This document shows positions 40,450 to 51,365 of a stretch of DNA of 64,000 nucleotides, in pieces (positions within the stretch are counted from its first letter, which is position 1; every line of letters begins with the position of its first letter). Source of the DNA: Promethearchaeota archaeon (GTDB lineage Archaea > Asgardarchaeota > Lokiarchaeia > Sigyniarchaeales > SOKP01); contig JBHLPW010000002.1 of assembly GCA_048939015.1 (NCBI GenBank), forward strand, positions 64,001 to 128,000. The letters run 5' to 3'. Made by a program: the position numbers and the translations under genes. Under the pieces are notes generated by a model. It worked only from the letters and a program-made list of their open reading frames with translations, was not told the origin of the DNA and did no database searches.

Positions 40450-40591
40450 TCCGCAAAAACTCACAATAATTTTATTATTTAATCCTGCGAACTTTTAAAT
40501 AATTTTAAGTTAGAGAGTTTTAGTCTTTTATTAATTGTTAATTCATAAAGTTTTAGTTCTTATAATTTTTAATCCAAATTAAGTGATTTAA

Positions 40592-41122
40592 ATGAAAATA
40601 TTGGTTGCTTATTTCTCAAACACAGGAAATACTGAAAAAGTAGCAAAAGCCATAAAAGAAGGAATAACTGAACATGAAGTGGATCTCTTAAATATAAAAA
40701 AAGCTGATCCAAATTCAATGGGCCCATACGATCTTGCTTTCATAGGTTCAGGTCTCTATGCATTTAATGTTAATCGGAAAGTTCCAACTTTTCTTAAAAA
40801 AATTCCTTCACCTCCCCCTAAGTTCGCATATTTCTATACACATGAAAATCCTCAACAAGGAGCATATCCAGACTGTTTTAAATCGGTGAATACAATTATA
40901 GAGAAAAGTGATTGTGAAGTATTGGGTACTTTCGATTGTTGTGGAGAAAATTTAGTCGAAAAGGCAAAAGAACAAAGAGAAGCTATGATGAGTAGATTAT
41001 CACCAGAAGAAAGAAAGAAATCTGAGGAGGATTGGTTAAATTTGGTTAAGGGACATCCTGACGTGCAAGATCTTGAGAATGCTAAGATTTTTGCCGCCTC
41101 TATAGTAAATAAACTTACCTAA
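40592..41122 (+). CDS. Flavodoxin family protein
   Basis: ILVAYFSNTGNTEKVA; GHPD..DLENAK.FA. Confidence 0.88.
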   Translation: MKILVAYFSNTGNTEKVAKAIKEGITEHEVDLLNIKKADPNSMGPYDLAFIGSGLYAFNVNRKVPTFLKKIPSPPPKFAYFYTHENPQQGAYPDCFKSVNTIIEKSDCEVLGTFDCCGENLVEKAKEQREAMMSRLSPEERKKSEEDWLNLVKGHPDVQDLENAKIFAASIVNKLT

Positions 41123-41348: not shown

Positions 41349-43283
41349 GTGAAAAACATGAGTAAAATTAAGGAAATACCTGTTCCTGATAAAGTTAAAG
41401 GTTTTACACAAGTTCGGCTCGATGTTGATTTAACAGATGGAAAGATCAGCAAATCTACGCTATCCAATGAATTTTGTCGAGATTGGGTAGGAGGTTATGG
41501 TTTCGGTGCTAAAGTTCTTTGGGATGAATGTCCTACAGGAGTCGATCCTTTAAGTCCTGAAAACGTATTTGTATATGCTCACGGTCCATTTCCAGGAACA
41601 ATACTTCCTACAAGTTCCAAATATGGTGTATTTGCGAAGTCTCCATTGACAGGAATGTTTGGTATGGCAATATCTTCTGGGTCAGTTGGAGCTCAAGCTC
41701 GACGTGCCGGAATAAATATGATCGTAGTCAAGGGTAAAGCTCCAGAGCCCGTTTATATGGTAGTTGATGATGATGATTATTATTTAGTACCATGTAAAGA
41801 TACAATATGGGGTAAAGGTTGCTGGGAAACAGAGGAACTTTTAAGGGAAGAATTTCAAGATCAACGACTTGGGATAATGAGCATTGGTCCTGGAGGTGAA
41901 CGTGGTAGTCATATGGGATGTATCACCAATGATCGCAATAGACAAGCTGGGAGAACTGGAATGGGTGCTGTTATGGGTTCAAAAAATCTTAAGGCAATAT
42001 GTTTTAGAGGAACCAAAGGGATAAGTGTAGCTCACCCTGTTGAGTTCTTTAAATTAGCTAAAAAGCTAATTAAAGTCGCAAATGGACCTGCTACCGCTAA
42101 ATATCGTGATTTAGGTACCCCTGCTGGAATAACAAGTTATAATAAGCTTGGAATGATGCCTACTTTCAATCATCGTGAAGGTACTTGGGATAAAGTTGAT
42201 GATGGAACCTTTACAGGGGATACACTCAATCAAGATTGGGTTGTAAAGAAGGTAGCATGTTCTCAATGCTCAATTGGATGTGATCATATTACTAAAGTAC
42301 CAAAAGATCATCCTCATTGGCCAAATCTTTATTCAAGTATAGACCAAGAATTATGTTATAGTTTTGGAAGCGCATGTGGAAATTATGATTGGCCATCAGT
42401 GTTCAAATGCGTATCATTAACAGATGATTTGGGCATAGATGCGATAAGTGGCGGAGTTACTGCAGCTATGGCATGCGAATTATTCGAGGAGGGTATAATT
42501 ACTAAAGAAGATTTAGGATATGAGCTTCCTTTTGGGTCAACAGTAAATCTTGTTAGATTTACTGAAGAGATGATTCTTGGTAAAGGTTTTGCAGGGAAAA
42601 TTTTTGGAGATGGGACACGAGAGGCTGGAAAACGATTAGAGGAAATGGGTAGAAAAAATGCAAGTTATTATGGTATGCATATTAAAGGATTAGAAATACC
42701 CGCTTTTGATGTTCATGGCATGAATTCATTCGCAGTTGGAATGAGTGTATCAATTCGCGGTGCGTGTCATTTAAGAAATGGTTCTTATGGTCTTGATGCT
42801 AAAGGGAATTTTGATAGATTCGCTTATGACAAACCTCTTGAAAGAGGTAAAGCAATCAAAAATTTAGAGGATATCTATGCTATAATTGATTCATATATTG
42901 TATGTAAATTTACTCGCGGTATATATGAAAATGATGCAGAAATGGCTAAAGTATTTGAATTAGTTACAGGAATCCCCGTAACTGATGAATTCATACAACA
43001 TAGAGGAGATGCAATTCTTAACCTCTCAAAATGCTTTAACATAAGAGAAGGATGGACAAGAGATGATGACAGACCCCCTGAAAGATTTTTCAAACAAGCT
43101 CATACAAAGGGACCAGCAAAAGGAGTTACCTTAAAAGAAGACGGTTATCAAAAGCTTTTGAGTGGTTATTATGAAGCACGAGGTTGGGATACTAAAACTG
43201 GAATTCCAACTGATGAAACATTAAAGTCGCTTGGATTAGATTTTGTAATCGGTAAATTAAAGCCTGCTGGAGGTAAAAAATAG
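41349..43283 (+). CDS. aor: Aldehyde:ferredoxin oxidoreductase family, catalytic subunit
   Basis: KSPLTG, AGRTGMGAVMGSKNLKAI, CSQC.IGC, GIDAIS, KGLE.PAFD, RGACH, YY.ARGWD; probable start ATG 41358. Confidence 0.93.
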   Translation: MKNMSKIKEIPVPDKVKGFTQVRLDVDLTDGKISKSTLSNEFCRDWVGGYGFGAKVLWDECPTGVDPLSPENVFVYAHGPFPGTILPTSSKYGVFAKSPLTGMFGMAISSGSVGAQARRAGINMIVVKGKAPEPVYMVVDDDDYYLVPCKDTIWGKGCWETEELLREEFQDQRLGIMSIGPGGERGSHMGCITNDRNRQAGRTGMGAVMGSKNLKAICFRGTKGISVAHPVEFFKLAKKLIKVANGPATAKYRDLGTPAGITSYNKLGMMPTFNHREGTWDKVDDGTFTGDTLNQDWVVKKVACSQCSIGCDHITKVPKDHPHWPNLYSSIDQELCYSFGSACGNYDWPSVFKCVSLTDDLGIDAISGGVTAAMACELFEEGIITKEDLGYELPFGSTVNLVRFTEEMILGKGFAGKIFGDGTREAGKRLEEMGRKNASYYGMHIKGLEIPAFDVHGMNSFAVGMSVSIRGACHLRNGSYGLDAKGNFDRFAYDKPLERGKAIKNLEDIYAIIDSYIVCKFTRGIYENDAEMAKVFELVTGIPVTDEFIQHRGDAILNLSKCFNIREGWTRDDDRPPERFFKQAHTKGPAKGVTLKEDGYQKLLSGYYEARGWDTKTGIPTDETLKSLGLDFVIGKLKPAGGKK

Positions 43284-43838
43284 ATGTCAAAAGCTACTAA
43301 GAAGAGAGGTGGAGTAGTTCACCAATTCATAATTGTCGATCCGAATTTATGTACTGGATGTGAAACCTGCGAATCAGTCTGCTCATTTGTCCATGATGGT
43401 GAATTTAATCCAATTAACACGAGAATTCACAGAGTAAGGATTGAACCTATATTAAATGTTGCACTAGCATGTCAAAAGTGTGATGATGCTCCATGTGTTC
43501 GAAGTTGTCCTGAAAAGGCTTTGGAACAAAATAAAGAAACGGGTTCCATTATCGTTGATGATGATAAATGTAATGGATGCGCTTTTTGTATCCGCGCATG
43601 TGATTTCGGTGTATTAAGTTTACATATACAATCTCAGAAGGCTCTAATTTGTGATCTTTGCGAGACCATGAAAGATGATTATATTGATTCCGAACGAGGA
43701 GAAAAATACCCCGCTTGTATTGATGTTTGTCCAAAGGAAGCTATCTCACTAAAAGATGTAGAACAAATCGGTGAAGAGAAGCGAATTGATGCTGTAAAAC
43801 GACTCTTCGGTGAGATTTTAGAGGAAACTAAAGCTTAA
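43284..43838 (+). CDS. 4x[4Fe-4S] (DmsB/HycB-like) electron-transfer subunit of the AOR
   Basis: CTGCETCESVC, CQKCDDAPCVRSCP, CNGCAFCIRAC, CDLC..PACIDVCP; abuts the aor stop. Confidence 0.92.
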   Translation: MSKATKKRGGVVHQFIIVDPNLCTGCETCESVCSFVHDGEFNPINTRIHRVRIEPILNVALACQKCDDAPCVRSCPEKALEQNKETGSIIVDDDKCNGCAFCIRACDFGVLSLHIQSQKALICDLCETMKDDYIDSERGEKYPACIDVCPKEAISLKDVEQIGEEKRIDAVKRLFGEILEETKA

Positions 43839-44575: not shown

Positions 44576-45223
44576 ATGAGTGATTCAAGTACGTTAGATA
44601 AATTAAAAAAAGCAGTTCTTGAAGGAGATGATGAAATCGCCCAAGGACTAGCTAAAAAAGCACTAAAGGAAAAAATAGAGCCGCTTAAAATAGTAAGTGA
44701 AGGTATTGTTCCAGGAATACAAGAAGCAGGTGAATTGTGGAAACAGAATGTGTATTTTCATACAGATATAATATTATGTGCTGAAGCTTTCCGATTGGCT
44801 ATGGAAATCATAGAACCAAAATTGTCAGCGGGAGCGCTTGCAAAATCAGGGAAAATTGTAATGGGAACAGTAGCAGGAGATATGCATAATCTTGGTAAGA
44901 TTATGGTTAACGCAACTTTACGAGGCGGAGGCTTTGAAGTTATTGATCTAGGGGAAGATGTATCTCAAGATACTTTTATACAAAAAGTAAAAGAATTGAA
45001 TCCTAACATTTTGGGATTAGGTTGTTATATGTCAACCACGATGTTAGAAATGAAAGAAATTATGAGCAGACTTAATAATGAAGGTTTAAGAGATAAAATT
45101 AAAGTAATGATAGGTGGTGTCCCCTGTACCCAAGAATATGCTAACGAAATAGGTGCTGATGCTTGGGGTAAAGATGCATTTGATGCTGTAGAAAAAGCAA
45201 AGAAATTGATGGGGGTGTCTTAA
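44576..45223 (+). CDS. Methyltransferase cognate corrinoid protein (MtaC/MtbC-like)
   Basis: GTVAGDMHNLGK (DxHxxG), GFEVIDLG.DV, KVMIGG.P, IGAD.W..DA. Confidence 0.93.
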   Translation: MSDSSTLDKLKKAVLEGDDEIAQGLAKKALKEKIEPLKIVSEGIVPGIQEAGELWKQNVYFHTDIILCAEAFRLAMEIIEPKLSAGALAKSGKIVMGTVAGDMHNLGKIMVNATLRGGGFEVIDLGEDVSQDTFIQKVKELNPNILGLGCYMSTTMLEMKEIMSRLNNEGLRDKIKVMIGGVPCTQEYANEIGADAWGKDAFDAVEKAKKLMGVS

Positions 45224-45224
45224 A

Positions 45225-46805
45225 GTGTCTCAGACAGGAGAAGTTAAAAAAGACATAGGTAGTTTAATTTCAAGAGGAGATACAGGTGCATTAACTATTG
45301 GAGCTCAATGTCATGATCATGTAATGTATCTTACAAAATCACCTGCTAAAAAATTCTATAGTGATTTTGCCTTTAATTATGAAATGGGTGAGATAGTAGG
45401 GCGTTATTATAATTTAGATAGTCCCGCAGGAGGTCATGATATATATGATCTTGAAGTAGAAGCATTAGGTGGAAAGTTAATTTATGGTGAAAATTCGATG
45501 CCTACTATTGATTTTCGTGAACCATTAATTAAGAGTCCAGAAGATCTTAAAAAACTGAAAATGAAAAAAGTTGATTTCCATACAGCTGGTCGATATCCGT
45601 CATTAATGAAGTCGGGTGGATTAGTACAAGCCGATATGGCAATGGTTTCTTTTTGTTCACCCTTTAGTTTAGCTGTAGGATTGATGGGGTTTCCAGCACT
45701 TATTAAAGCGATGAGGAAACACCCAGATTTCGCTCATGATGTATTTAAATTTATCGTTGATGATGTATTAACCCCTTCGATTAAAGCTCAAAATGAAACT
45801 ATGGATGCTCTCATGGGAGTGGGAGCTGATGCTTGGGCTTGTGTACCAAATTTATCTCCGAAAGAAATGCAAGAATGGGTAGTCCCTTATAATCAAAGAC
45901 TTGAGGAGAACGTAAAAAAAATCGGAGTCACCACTATGAATGTAAGTGGGGATTATTGTGAAGAAAGGATAGAAAAATTTGATCCTAAAATCCTTCATGA
46001 TAGTTTTGATGTAGAAATTGCTAGCATGGGAGGAACTCCTGCCATATTTTTAGGTATGGGACGTTGGCATGAGTATCCCCTTGAAGCAGTTCGAAATTAC
46101 ACAGAAAAATTTCGCAAAAAAGGAATTCCTGTGACTGTAACTGCAGGTATAAACGCCCGATTACTACGTGATGGTCCAATTGATAAAATTGTAGATACTG
46201 TTAAGAGATATATTGATGCTTTTGCTCGTGATCATAATTTAAGTATTTTCCTCATGAATGTACCATATGATACTCCATCAGCTCATATTCATGCTGCTGT
46301 AGCTGCTACTCATACATATGGAAAATTACCGATCGCAAATAACTTGGATGACATAAATTTTGTGCTGCCAAAGAGAGAGTCTTTTGATGAATGGGTAAAT
46401 ACTGAAGAGGCGAAGAAAAAACCTCCAAAAGAAAAAGAGAGAAGGGGTCTAGCAGGATTACTATGGGGACAAATGGGGAAAATTAATAATAACCCTAAAT
46501 TTAAGGAACTATATGCAGATGCAAAGATGAGCTTCTTATATAATCTCACTGACCAACGATATGGTGCTTTAATTAAGGTAGAAAATGGAAGATTGGAAGT
46601 AGAACATGTGAGGAATGATGAGGAGACATTAAAAAGTCTGAAGGTAGATGCTTTACTCGCATGTCCAGCAGGTTTATTTTTTGATTTTAGTGCTGGTAAA
46701 TTATCTAAAGTTGCTATGATAGGTAAAATGCTTACTGGCAAGCTAAAAGTGAAAGGAGCGAAAAAAATGAAAGAACTGGGAAATATAATGGCTCTAATGA
46801 GCTAA
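45225..46805 (+). CDS. UroD/MtaA-family (corrinoid methyltransferase-like) protein with a C-terminal SCP2-like domain
   Basis: EVEALGG.L, GR.P, SPFSLA..L.G, P.F.H TIM-barrel motifs; C-terminal ~110 aa ending ML.GKLKVKG typical of SCP2; GTG start 1 nt after the corrinoid gene. Confidence 0.78.
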   Translation: MSQTGEVKKDIGSLISRGDTGALTIGAQCHDHVMYLTKSPAKKFYSDFAFNYEMGEIVGRYYNLDSPAGGHDIYDLEVEALGGKLIYGENSMPTIDFREPLIKSPEDLKKLKMKKVDFHTAGRYPSLMKSGGLVQADMAMVSFCSPFSLAVGLMGFPALIKAMRKHPDFAHDVFKFIVDDVLTPSIKAQNETMDALMGVGADAWACVPNLSPKEMQEWVVPYNQRLEENVKKIGVTTMNVSGDYCEERIEKFDPKILHDSFDVEIASMGGTPAIFLGMGRWHEYPLEAVRNYTEKFRKKGIPVTVTAGINARLLRDGPIDKIVDTVKRYIDAFARDHNLSIFLMNVPYDTPSAHIHAAVAATHTYGKLPIANNLDDINFVLPKRESFDEWVNTEEAKKKPPKEKERRGLAGLLWGQMGKINNNPKFKELYADAKMSFLYNLTDQRYGALIKVENGRLEVEHVRNDEETLKSLKVDALLACPAGLFFDFSAGKLSKVAMIGKMLTGKLKVKGAKKMKELGNIMALMS

Positions 46806-47597: not shown

Positions 47598-49574
47598 ATG
47601 TCTGATAAACAGACCAATGAAAACAATAACGAAGATCAACCAAGAATAGGTGTGTTCGTATGTCATTGAGGTATCAATATCGCAGGAATCTTAGACATAC
47701 CAAAGATAGTCGAAGAAATAAATAAATTAGAAAATGTTTGGGCTTATCCATATTTATCATTATGTACTGAAGGTGGTTCCACCGTGATCAAAGAAAAACA
47801 TGAAGAAGTTAATTTTAATAGAGTTTTGGTCGCTGCTTGCACTCCAAAAACACATCAGCCTGTTTTCCATGCAATATTAACAGAGATGGGGTTACCTCCA
47901 AGATACTTAGAATTTGTAAACATTCGAGAACATTGTTCTTTTGTACATCAAGCTCCAGAAGTACGTGAAAAGGCTGCTCTAAAAGCAATTGAATTAATTA
48001 AAGCGGGGATTGCCAGAGCAAAATTATTAGAAGATGTCCCTACAAAAACAGTACCAGTAGAACCAGCAGCTTTAGTTGTAGGTGGAGGAATTGCTGGTTT
48101 GTCTACCGCTATAGATTTAGGTGATGCGGGATATAAAGTCTATTTAGTTGAAAAAAATACGACTATAGGAGGACGTATGTCCCAACTTGATAGAACTTTC
48201 CCTACAGATGATTGTTCTATATGAATATTGGGACCAAAAATGCTTGAAGCTAACCGCCATCCAAATATAGAAATCTTATCTTATAGCGAAGTAAATGAAA
48301 TTGATGGATATATTGGGAATTTTGAAGTTAAGGTAAGAAAGAAGGCTCGATTTGTTCTTGAAGATAAATGCACGGGTTGTGGTACATGTACAGATGTTTG
48401 CCCCGTTTACATAAGTAATTACTTTGATGAACATCTTTCAGCAAGAAAAGTCATCGATATTGCATTTGCACAAGCAGTTCCCGCAATATCACAGCTGGAT
48501 AGAACAGCATGCATCGAATGTTTTGCATGTGTAGATGCTTGCGAGCAATCTGCAATAGATTTTAGTCAGCAGGATGAGATAATAGAACTCAAAGTAGGTA
48601 CAATAATAGTTGCCACTGGTTGGGATCTCTATCAAGGAGATGATTATGGTTATGGTACTTATGATAACGTTATTAATCAAATAGAATTAGAGAGAATACT
48701 TGCTCCAAATGGTCCAACTTATGGTCATCTAAAGCGTCCATCTGATGGTAAACGTCCAACCAAGGTTTTATTCATCAACTGTGTTGGATCAAGGGATGTA
48801 AGTAAGAATGCTCACTGCAGTGTTATCTGTTGTAATCTTTCCCTGAAAAACTCAAAATTAATTAAATCTGAGTACCCTGATTCGCAAATAGTTTGTTGTT
48901 ACATAGATATGAGATGTGCAGGAAAAGATTATGAAGAATACTATAGAAGATCTCGAGATGCGGGAATAATCTTTGTTAAAGGATTAGTTGGAAAAATTGA
49001 AGAAGATCCTCTAACAAAAAACCTTACTGTTCAATTTGAACCTGTTGGAACGGACTCAGTAGTTACTATGGAATTCCATATGGTAGTATTATCACCTGCT
49101 TCACTCCCATCTCAAGGAACAGTTGAAATTGCAAAAGTATTAAACATGGAAAAAAGTCCCGATGGATTTTTAAAAGAATATCATGCTCGTTTGGATCCAA
49201 TTAGTACAAAAGTACCTGGAATTTATATTTGCGGTTCTGCTCAAGGTCAGAAAGAAATCGATAAAGCAGTAAGTCAAGCAAGAGGAGCTGCATCAGTAGC
49301 AGGGATTCCTATGGGTAAGGGAGAATATACTATGGAACTAATTCGAGCAACTCCTTCGGATGAAAGATGCGCTAAATGCTATAAATGTATTGAAGCCTGT
49401 CCTTATTCTGCGATTTCTGTAAATGAACAAGGCAATATAGTTGTTAACCTTATTAATTGTCGAGGTTGCGGTACTTGTGCTTCATTATGCCCTTCAAAAG
49501 CAATTGAATTAACATACTTTAGAGATGATCAATATATGGCATTAGTTGACGAATTATTACCAATGGAGGAATAA
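47598..49574 (+). CDS. hdrA: Heterodisulfide reductase subunit A, selenoprotein (658 aa; Sec24 and Sec209)
   Basis: One frame from ATG 47598 (AGGTGA RBS) to TAA 49572-49574 with in-frame TGA at 47667 (RIGVFVCH-U-GINIAG) and 48222 (TFPTDDCSI-U-ILGPKM), both at conserved HdrA Cys positions; joins ORF-track pieces 47784-48224 and 48228-49574. Confidence 0.95.
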
Positions 49575-49587
49575 AGAGGTAATTAAA

Positions 49588-50046
49588 ATGGCTGAAGATA
49601 ATGATATTAAAATAATAGTATTTGCTTGCTGGAAATGAGGTTATGGTTCAGCGGATATGGCAGGGACTATTCGAGCCCAATATCCGGATTCGATTAGAAA
49701 CGTATTAGTGCCTTGCTCAGGACGTGTAGGACCAGATCTAATTATGCGAGCATTTGGAAGAGGTGCAGATGGTGTCGTTATTAATGCTTGATATCCTGGT
49801 GAATGCGATTATGAGACAGGAAATTACCATGCATATAGACAGGTTGAATATATAAAAGAAATCTTAAAAGTAGTCGGTATAAGTCCTGATAGGTTAAAAA
49901 TAATCTATTGCACCGCTGCTGAAGGTCAGAAATTTCAAAATGAGGCTATTGAAATCGATAAAACAATCCGTAAATTAGGACCAAGTCCTTTACATACAAA
50001 AGGCACACCTAAAAAAGAAAAAGCTAAAGCGAAAGCTAAAGCTTAA
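49588..50046 (+). CDS. mvhD: MvhD/VhuD [2Fe-2S] subunit, selenoprotein (152 aa; Sec17 and Sec68)
   Basis: Absent from ORF track. MAEDNDIKIIVFACWK-U-GYGSADMAG...PCSGRV...GADGVVINA-U-YPGECDYETGN...CTAAEGQKF...LGPSPL; TGA at 49636 and 49789; GAGGT RBS. Confidence 0.95.
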
Positions 50047-50052
50047 AAAATA

Positions 50053-50126
50053 ATGTGTTGACTGATGAAGCTGAGTTAAAAAAAATGAGAACTCAGCTGA
50101 AGAAATGGGTGCACCATATAACACAT
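50053..50126 (+). ncRNA. SECIS element (eukaryote-like / Lokiarchaeia type), cis-acting mRNA structure
   Basis: Helix 1 ATGTGTTG (50053-60) / TAACACAT (50119-26); core ATGA (50065-68) ... GA (50099-100); perfect 9-bp helix 2 AGCTGAGTT / AACTCAGCT; A8-containing apical loop; starts 6 nt after the mvhD stop. Confidence 0.9.
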
Positions 50127-50225
50127 AAAAAAGTAATAATAAAATATAAAAAAAAATCAAAAATTTGATTCATAAATTTGGAAAATTTAAAAAATAGTTT
50201 AGTATATAGTTAGAGTTGGAATTTC

Positions 50226-51365
50226 ATGGAAGTCATAGCAGAATACTTAATAAAGATTGAAGATTTTCCTAAGATCTTAACAACTTTATTAAAGGAAAAA
50301 GCTGTAGATAAATTCATAGGTGCTGAACTTAGGGTGGATAAAAAATCTGGTGCTATAGACCGATTTACTGTTCAGCCTAAATTAGCAGAAAAAGAGGAAG
50401 ATGTTAAAGATTTTCCTTTAACTCCTCTAATTGCATTTGGATACGCAAGAACAGACTCGGCTTCAAAGTATCTGCATAAATCAGTTGCAGGTGCGATGAA
50501 TGAAAAAGTAGGATTGGTTGCTCGTCCGTGCGACACAAGAGCCCTAATAGAACTTGCAAAGATTCGACAAGTAAACCTAGACAATCTCTTTGTGATTGGT
50601 ATTGAAGATCGGGGAATGCTTCCAAAAGCAGGACGAGAAATGAAAGCGATTAAGGATGTTGATCCAACTAAAATTGTGAAAGAAAAAGTAGGCGATACTG
50701 GTCTTATCGTGAAAATGGAAGATGGAAGCACAAAAGAGCTTAATCTTACTGTAGCAGAAAATTGTTTAAGATGCTATCGTAAAATTCCTGTAGTCGCTGA
50801 TTTAACTGTGAGTGATCTTGGAATTCCAGTTGATTCGGATGAGATAATCCTAAAAGTTTATTCAGATAAAGGGAGTGAAATTTTAGATAAATCAGGAATT
50901 AGTAAAAAACCTCTCCCCGATAAAGAAAAAAAAGCTCATTCAGATAAATATAATGAAATAATCGAAAAAGCAAAAGAAAAACGAGCAAAAGATTTGGAAG
51001 AATGGGATACACTTTCACAAGATGAAAAAATTGCTGAACTTCTTAAATGTACAATGTGTAACACTTGTATTCGTGGTTGTCCTGTTTGTTATTGTGTGGA
51101 TTGCATATTAATGAAAAAGAGAAAGGATAAAGCTATTGATAAAGCAACATATCAATTAACGAGAGTAGCTCATGATGCTGATCGCTGTGTTGAGTGTGGG
51201 AACTGTGATAATAATTGCCCTCAAAATTTACCTCTTTCGCTCTATTTTCAATCTTTGAATGAAGCTTTTAAAGAAAAGTTTGGTTATGAGGCAGGGATGT
51301 CTCTCGAAGATATTCCATTTCGATCTGGAAAAGCAATTTCTCAGATGGAATTAGAGAAAACATAA
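50226..51365 (+). CDS. FdhB/FrhB-like Fe-S protein (F420 dehydrogenase beta-subunit family)
   Basis: VARPCD.RALIELAK.RQVNLDNL..IG; CLRC; CTMCNTCIRGCPVCYCVDC; H...RCVECGNCDNNCP. Confidence 0.82.
   Translation: MEVIAEYLIKIEDFPKILTTLLKEKAVDKFIGAELRVDKKSGAIDRFTVQPKLAEKEEDVKDFPLTPLIAFGYARTDSASKYLHKSVAGAMNEKVGLVARPCDTRALIELAKIRQVNLDNLFVIGIEDRGMLPKAGREMKAIKDVDPTKIVKEKVGDTGLIVKMEDGSTKELNLTVAENCLRCYRKIPVVADLTVSDLGIPVDSDEIILKVYSDKGSEILDKSGISKKPLPDKEKKAHSDKYNEIIEKAKEKRAKDLEEWDTLSQDEKIAELLKCTMCNTCIRGCPVCYCVDCILMKKRKDKAIDKATYQLTRVAHDADRCVECGNCDNNCPQNLPLSLYFQSLNEAFKEKFGYEAGMSLEDIPFRSGKAISQMELEKT

Follow-up and report, generated by a model that had tools for sequence, protein, structure and literature searches.

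The closest described systems are the HdrA-VhuD pairs of Lokiarchaeota. According to Mariotti et al. 2016 (PMC4989117), HdrA in these archaea contains more than one selenocysteine (Sec) residue, always including the canonical site; hdrA and vhuD invariably occur in tandem with very short spacers; the HdrA stop codon is never UGA; and the one lokiSECIS, whose stem has 9 bp and whose apical loop has 11 nt, lies downstream of vhuD only. The same account, which predates the HdrA structure, held the Sec sites not to be cluster ligands. An Asgard-wide survey published in 2024 by Zhang's group found hdrA next to frhD/vhuD in every case, with an eSECIS-like element common to both (PMC11227280). Among enzymes of known structure, the HdrA of M. 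maripaludis (HdrAu, PDB 9SFI) has a five-domain architecture, Sec at DCxxU, and a two-Sec VhuD partner (PMC13518236), whereas the HdrABC-MvhAGD complex of M. thermolithotrophicus (PDB 5ODC) is an all-Cys enzyme.

The stretch of DNA analysed here (hereafter designated the window; 64,000 nucleotides) derives from a Lokiarchaeia-type Asgard MAG (4.86 Mb, 125 contigs, 94.9% complete) and shares with the Lokiarchaeota pairs the lineage, a multi-Sec HdrA, and a two-Sec vhuD located downstream on the same strand. Its SECIS element likewise shows the AUGA...GA arrangement, the 9-bp stem, the A-rich loop, and the position after vhuD only that have been described for the lokiSECIS (PMC4989117). No essential difference from the Lokiarchaeota pairs was found, and the locus represents an orthologue in another MAG. 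Because it fits the published description throughout, it adds one more case to a phenomenon already in the literature. Thus, although the initial annotation treated a two-Sec HdrA as new, multi-Sec HdrA in Lokiarchaeota has been on record since 2016, and the two-Sec hdrA is already known and ordinary for the lineage. Mariotti et al. speak of 'five positions' of Sec in HdrA, of which the CxU site of the window may be one. The M. maripaludis protein resembles the window HdrA in the features named above but differs in having Cys at the N-terminal CxC site, where the window has Sec, in using an archaeal-type rather than a eukaryote-like SECIS, and in belonging to an Mcr-containing methanogen with HdrBC, Vhu, and Fwd as partners. 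The M. thermolithotrophicus enzyme shares all the Fe-S Cys motifs, E356/K409, and DCxxC, whereas the window HdrA has Sec at its Cys13 and Cys197 positions.

The hdrA gene and its two in-frame UGA codons are located as follows.

47598-49574, + strand: hdrA coding sequence, 658 aa with two UGA codons read through, assigned by a full-length match to solved HdrA structures
47667-47669, + strand: UGA read as Sec24, context VCH-U-GINI, second Cys position of the N-terminal CxC motif
48222-48224, + strand: UGA read as Sec209, context DDCSI-U-ILGP, canonical HdrA Sec site DCxxU

Translated with TGA as U, the frame extends from the ATG at 47598 to the TAA at 49572-49574. In the ORF list made with the standard code, hdrA appears as two fragments only (47784-48224 and 48228-49574), and the gene is therefore hidden from ordinary gene callers. 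The read-through product matches the M. maripaludis HdrA 9sfi_A over residues 14-654 (E 5.7e-205) and the M. thermolithotrophicus HdrA 5odc_A over residues 13-648 (E 1.6e-195), with further strong matches to 8rvu_a and 7bkb_A; it is thus similar over its full length to the structurally characterised five-domain type I HdrA (HdrA1), with HdrA-like sequence continuing in frame on both sides of the UGA codons as the initial annotation had noticed. Pfam recognized an FAD/Rossmann domain and two ferredoxin domains, and the top NCBIfam models were HdrA2 and HdrA, with scores below the equivalog cut-offs, which were built for methanogen proteins of about 770 positions. The Cys motifs of HdrA1 are complete, with Sec at 24 and 209: the four Cys positions of the N-terminal domain, DCxxC, two CxxCxxCxxxC(P) motifs of the inserted ferredoxin, the HA4 motif C...CxxxCC, and the pair of motifs belonging to the C-terminal ferredoxin. 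Moreover, the counterparts of E356 and K409 in 5odc_A are E365 (in ELER) and K417 (after CSVICC), so that the retention of the Glu and Lys associated with the bifurcating FAD was borne out. The Lys409/Glu356 pair is located at N5 of FAD and has been proposed as a marker of bifurcating HdrA (PMC12054007); by homology, the hdrA product of this Lokiarchaeia-type archaeon is predicted to carry out electron bifurcation.

Both UGA codons are positioned opposite conserved Cys. In the alignments with the solved chains, U24 is opposite Cys13 of 5odc_A, and U209 is opposite Cys197 of 5odc_A and the X of 9sfi_A, which is Sec197 of M. maripaludis HdrA (PMC13518236); the DC..U site is indeed the Sec site of methanococcal HdrA. 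Conservation was examined in 80 orthologous loci (60-95% identity, one genome per species), nearly all from records titled Promethearchaeota or Promethearchaeia, that is, of Asgard/Lokiarchaeia type. In these loci and the window, all 78 sequences that cover site 24 have TGA there, all 81 have it at site 209, and the remaining Fe-S Cys columns hold Cys in 79-81 of the 81 sequences. The stop codon of hdrA itself is TAA in 46 and TAG in 33 of these sequences and TGA in none. Judged from this alignment, the conservation of TGA at both sites is far beyond chance. Together with the read-through match, these counts confirm that hdrA is a real, intact gene for a two-Sec iron-sulfur flavoprotein HdrA, split by the ORF caller as had been proposed. 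One locus of the set (L056, DATKTW010000168.1), whose hdrA-vhuD region is 81% identical to that of the window, is titled 'Candidatus Nanopelagicaceae bacterium' and is probably a mis-binned or mislabelled record.

The distribution of Sec among HdrA homologues was surveyed in 60 sampled genomes of the phylum, in which 47 of the 150 best HdrA homologues listed contain an in-frame TGA. A map of Sec sites was made for 47 homologues, namely 40 TGA-bearing ones and the seven full-length HdrA genes of the window's genome, three of which are all-Cys.

Sec sites {24, 209}: 27 homologues
Sec sites {209}: 6 homologues
Sec sites {24, 81, 209}: 6 homologues
Sec sites {24, 56, 209}: 2 homologues
Sec sites {24, 56, 81, 209}: 1 homologue
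Sec sites {24, 81, 209, 308}: 1 homologue
Sec sites {24, 209, 411}: 1 homologue
No Sec site: 3 homologues

In these 47 Asgard sequences the sites are strictly nested in the order 209 > 24 > 56/81: Sec24 never occurs without Sec209, and Sec at 56 or 81 never without both. Among the Sec-containing forms of HdrA in the sample, {24, 209}, the two-Sec form of the window, is the most frequent, although the sequences are related and the counts are therefore not independent events. This nested order is a small addition of the present analysis. Sec is also found, rarely, at classical [4Fe-4S] ligand positions, namely 308 (inserted ferredoxin), 411 (CC motif of HA4), and 258 (loci L113, L138, and one among L013-L092), which indicates that the HdrA family tolerates Sec as an Fe-S ligand. 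The window's genome further encodes a four-Sec HdrA {24, 56, 81, 209} (L094, G000:C32:105500-108700), a three-Sec HdrA, and another two-Sec HdrA (L093 and L095), each followed by a two-Sec vhuD. Two of its three all-Cys HdrA paralogues are fused to MvhD.

The region downstream of hdrA contains the following features.

49588-50046, + strand: vhuD/mvhD (FlpD family), 152 aa, PF02662 at 143 bits
49636-49638, + strand: UGA read as Sec17 of VhuD, aligned with MvhD Cys16
49789-49791, + strand: UGA read as Sec68 of VhuD, aligned with MvhD Cys67
50051-50137, + strand: eukaryote-like SECIS (lokiSECIS) with a kink-turn, directly after the vhuD stop
50053-50059 with 50120-50126, + strand: lower stem of the SECIS
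50065-50068, + strand: AUGA core of the SECIS
50069-50077 with 50090-50098, + strand: upper stem of the SECIS, 9 bp, with an A-rich 12-nt apical loop between
50099-50100, + strand: GA of the SECIS
50105-50108 with 50114-50117, + strand: side hairpin of the SECIS
50226-51365, + strand: FrhB/FdhB-like protein, matching PF04432 (48 bits) and Fer4 domains; its C-terminal domain is of the 2x[4Fe-4S] type

The vhuD gene begins 13 nt past the hdrA stop, and its pair of TGA codons, 51 codons apart, is present in every orthologous locus in which vhuD was found; the MvhD reference used for the alignment was that of M. marburgensis, whose His68 and Asp71 are opposite Tyr69 and Glu72 of VhuD. Like hdrA, this two-Sec vhuD (49588-50046) is a gene that callers miss, and it is unannotated. 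The SECIS present in the transcript after vhuD has lokiSECIS or type I eSECIS-like features. Its fold beats all of 200 shuffled sequences (z = -3.9). In an alignment of 43 distinct orthologous copies, compensatory changes are seen in 8 of the 9 pairs of the upper stem, 94% of cells pair (29-50% when the partners are slid), and the covariation score was reached by none of 500 shuffles. The side hairpin (AUGG...CCAU) is nearly invariant and the lower stem is conserved, forming a three-way junction in all 43 copies. A covariance model built from the 43 copies and run with filters off scored strongly in the window at 50051-50137 alone (101 bits); the next best, 40548-40632 at 20 bits, has no AUGA core and was rejected as AT-rich noise. 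Rfam at gathering thresholds gave no match in the 64-kb window.

The four UGA codons are located 276, 429, 1843, and 2398 nt upstream of the SECIS core. The same covariance model gave no further SECIS within hdrA or close to it, so all four codons are presumably served by this one element. The FrhB-like gene lies downstream of hdrA-vhuD-SECIS in 75 of the 80 orthologous loci, and because of this synteny the SECIS may be intercistronic rather than in a 3' UTR. Upstream of the operon, at 44576-46805, a corrinoid protein gene (MtgC/MtbC-like) is followed after 1 nt by a gene for a 526-aa URO-D/MtaA-family methyltransferase-like protein, and at 41349-43838 an aldehyde:ferredoxin oxidoreductase gene is directly followed by a polyferredoxin gene.

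Collectively, we assign a probability of about 0.9 to the reading that hdrA and vhuD are one operon, that its four UGAs are read as Sec by way of one SECIS, and that the selenols act at or near the N-terminal cluster HA3. In this Lokiarchaeia-type archaeon, hdrA and vhuD would be transcribed as one operon with two UGAs each, and the SECIS would presumably recruit the EFSec-like factor with Sec-tRNA(Sec) for all four. Both HdrA selenols would then act at or beside HA3, with Sec209 supplied by the partner subunit, and may tune or speed electron hand-over among FAD, HA3, and the [2Fe-2S] cluster of VhuD.

The location of the selenols relative to HA3 is taken from structures of HdrA of other organisms. 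In the crystal account (PMC9012536), the N-terminal [4Fe-4S] cluster HA3 is bound by Cys residues of the N-terminal domain and by Cys197 of the other HdrA subunit. A comparison of the seven full-length paralogues of the window's genome with three distant orthologues revealed exactly four invariant Cys/Sec columns in the N-terminal domain (22, 24, 56, and 81), and a fifth Cys (113) is variable, being Asp in M. maripaludis. Because Cys197 is the partner's HA3 ligand and U24 is among the four invariant Cys positions, both Sec residues map around one cluster. The initial annotation had placed selenium at two cluster sites; the two Sec residues stand, whereas the two sites would reduce to the single cluster HA3, and ligation by DCxxU has been doubted by cryo-EM. 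Indeed, in the 2026 cryo-EM study of M. marburgensis, the Cys202/Cys205 pair (DCxxC) holds an unknown ligand away from HA3; this pair and the 'additional' MvhD Cys16 are both situated between FAD and the [2Fe-2S] cluster of MvhD, and HA3 behaves as an isolated shuttle cluster (PMC13580544); in that of M. maripaludis, also of 2026, the density at Sec197 was read as a selenylsulfide bridge (PMC13518236). The crystal account and the two cryo-EM studies disagree on whether the Cys197 position ligates HA3 (PMC9012536, PMC13580544, PMC13518236).

It is possible, if held tentatively, that both UGAs encode Sec and that neither residue is an Fe-S ligand, the two serving instead in a redox-active selenol/thiol relay between the mobile-arm clusters and FAD, with Sec209 acting together with Cys206 and Sec24 being an 'additional' residue like MvhD Cys16. 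Such a relay agrees with the Cys-Sec197 selenylsulfide density between cluster A3 and FAD in M. maripaludis (PMC13518236), with the unknown ligand held by Cys202/Cys205 of M. marburgensis and the designation of MvhD Cys16 as an additional non-ligand (PMC13580544), and with the alignment of VhuD U17 with that Cys16. A weak profile-profile alignment also places HdrA U24 in register with VhuD U17 (E 3.6e-4, probability 37%), where BLASTP of the HdrA N-terminal domain against VhuD gave no match. The relay is opposed by the crystal structure, in which, by the published account, Cys197 ligates the partner's N-terminal cluster (PMC9012536), by the homologues with Sec at the undoubted cluster-ligand positions 258, 308, and 411, and by the N-terminal domain having only four invariant Cys, so that, once a four-Cys [4Fe-4S] cluster moves off the DCxxC pair, the Sec24 position is required as one of its ligands.

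In the light of the cryo-EM studies, three of the four Sec residues of the operon (HdrA U209, VhuD U17, and, by the weak profile alignment, HdrA U24) fall at a moving interface around FAD, where they may be Fe ligands, a selenol/thiol relay, or each in turn. A more specific version of the reading with selenols at HA3, which we regard as unlikely, is that Sec24 and the partner's Sec209 might be exchangeable ligands of a mobile HA3, with Sec209' bound in one conformation and Sec24 in the other. This arrangement would account for the strict nesting of Sec sites in the 47 homologues. If it were true, selenolates would have been selected there for fast ligand swap or for electron hand-over to or from FAD, and HA3 would be almost fully selenolate-ligated in the three- and four-Sec paralogues.

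Decoding of UGA as Sec was assessed from the machinery encoded in the genome, whose presence the initial annotation had named as a check. The genome contains a tRNA-Sec (61 bits, anticodon TCA), which ARAGORN calls SeC(tca), and some 80 nt downstream a SepSecS gene (477 bits). About 4 kb away lies the gene for an EFSec-like GTPase that scores highest with selB (236 bits, 100 bits ahead of any other family); the cut-off of this bacterial model is 242. A match at 227 bits to NF045535, the Asgard 'putative selenocysteine system protein', was also found, and these four genes form a Sec gene cluster (L099, G000:C77:8000-18500). Two selD genes (L007 on G000:C80 and L008 on G000:C81), each with one in-frame TGA, provide SPS/SelD. 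Of the components expected, only PSTK was not found, in a search of the 125-contig, 94.9% complete assembly that used three models and also took in the genes around the Sec cluster on C77: TIGR03574 and PF08433 match only an APS kinase, and TIGR03575 matches nothing. Because the assembly is fragmented, this gap is a weak one.

The two readings in which these UGAs do not encode Sec have next to no probability. Genome-wide reassignment of TGA to a standard amino acid (for example, Trp or Gly) has a precedent in some uncultured lineages that recode TGA, with nothing specific to this genome. Of the 50 stop-to-stop frames of at least 150 codons in the window, 6 terminate at TGA (among them the hdrA fragment that ends at 48222), and TGA is therefore still an ordinary stop codon. 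The in-frame TGAs of HdrA homologues fall on Cys columns only, no ordinary genes needing read-through of TGA at non-Cys positions were seen, and a TCA-anticodon tRNA of Sec-type architecture adjoins SepSecS. That hdrA is a pseudogene or the product of assembly errors, with the TGAs being real stops and fragments at most being made, has in its favour the splitting of hdrA by a standard ORF caller. Against it stand the 78-81 sequences, some as little as 60% identical, that retain both TGAs on invariant Cys columns within an unbroken frame and conserved flanking sequence, as well as the Sec machinery and the covarying SECIS. The conservation of the TGAs and the continued use of TGA as a stop thus exclude both readings for practical purposes.

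With regard to the role in the cell, no McrA match was found in the 94.9% complete genome and no hdrBC adjoining hdrA in the window; the combination of HdrBC and Mcr that defines the methanogenic CoB-CoM heterodisulfide reductase is thus not seen here. CCG domains were matched 39 times elsewhere in the genome, which also encodes one large subunit of a [NiFe]-hydrogenase. The protein is therefore HdrA by family and not a methanogenic heterodisulfide reductase by role. Since the genome is without Mcr, the enzyme would not reduce CoM-S-S-CoB. More likely, HdrA works with VhuD and the syntenic FrhB-like protein, which are probably its partners.

The window presents a textbook case of the Lokiarchaeota Sec system, in which one SECIS presumably serves four UGAs in two cistrons over up to 2.4 kb, and adds no new principle. 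Because gene callers split or drop hdrA and vhuD, the capacity of Asgard archaea for electron bifurcation is understated. The nesting of Sec sites about a single Fe-S cluster is relevant to a question raised by the 2026 cryo-EM studies, namely what role is played by the conserved Cys/Sec residues that lie between the bifurcating FAD and the clusters of the mobile arm.
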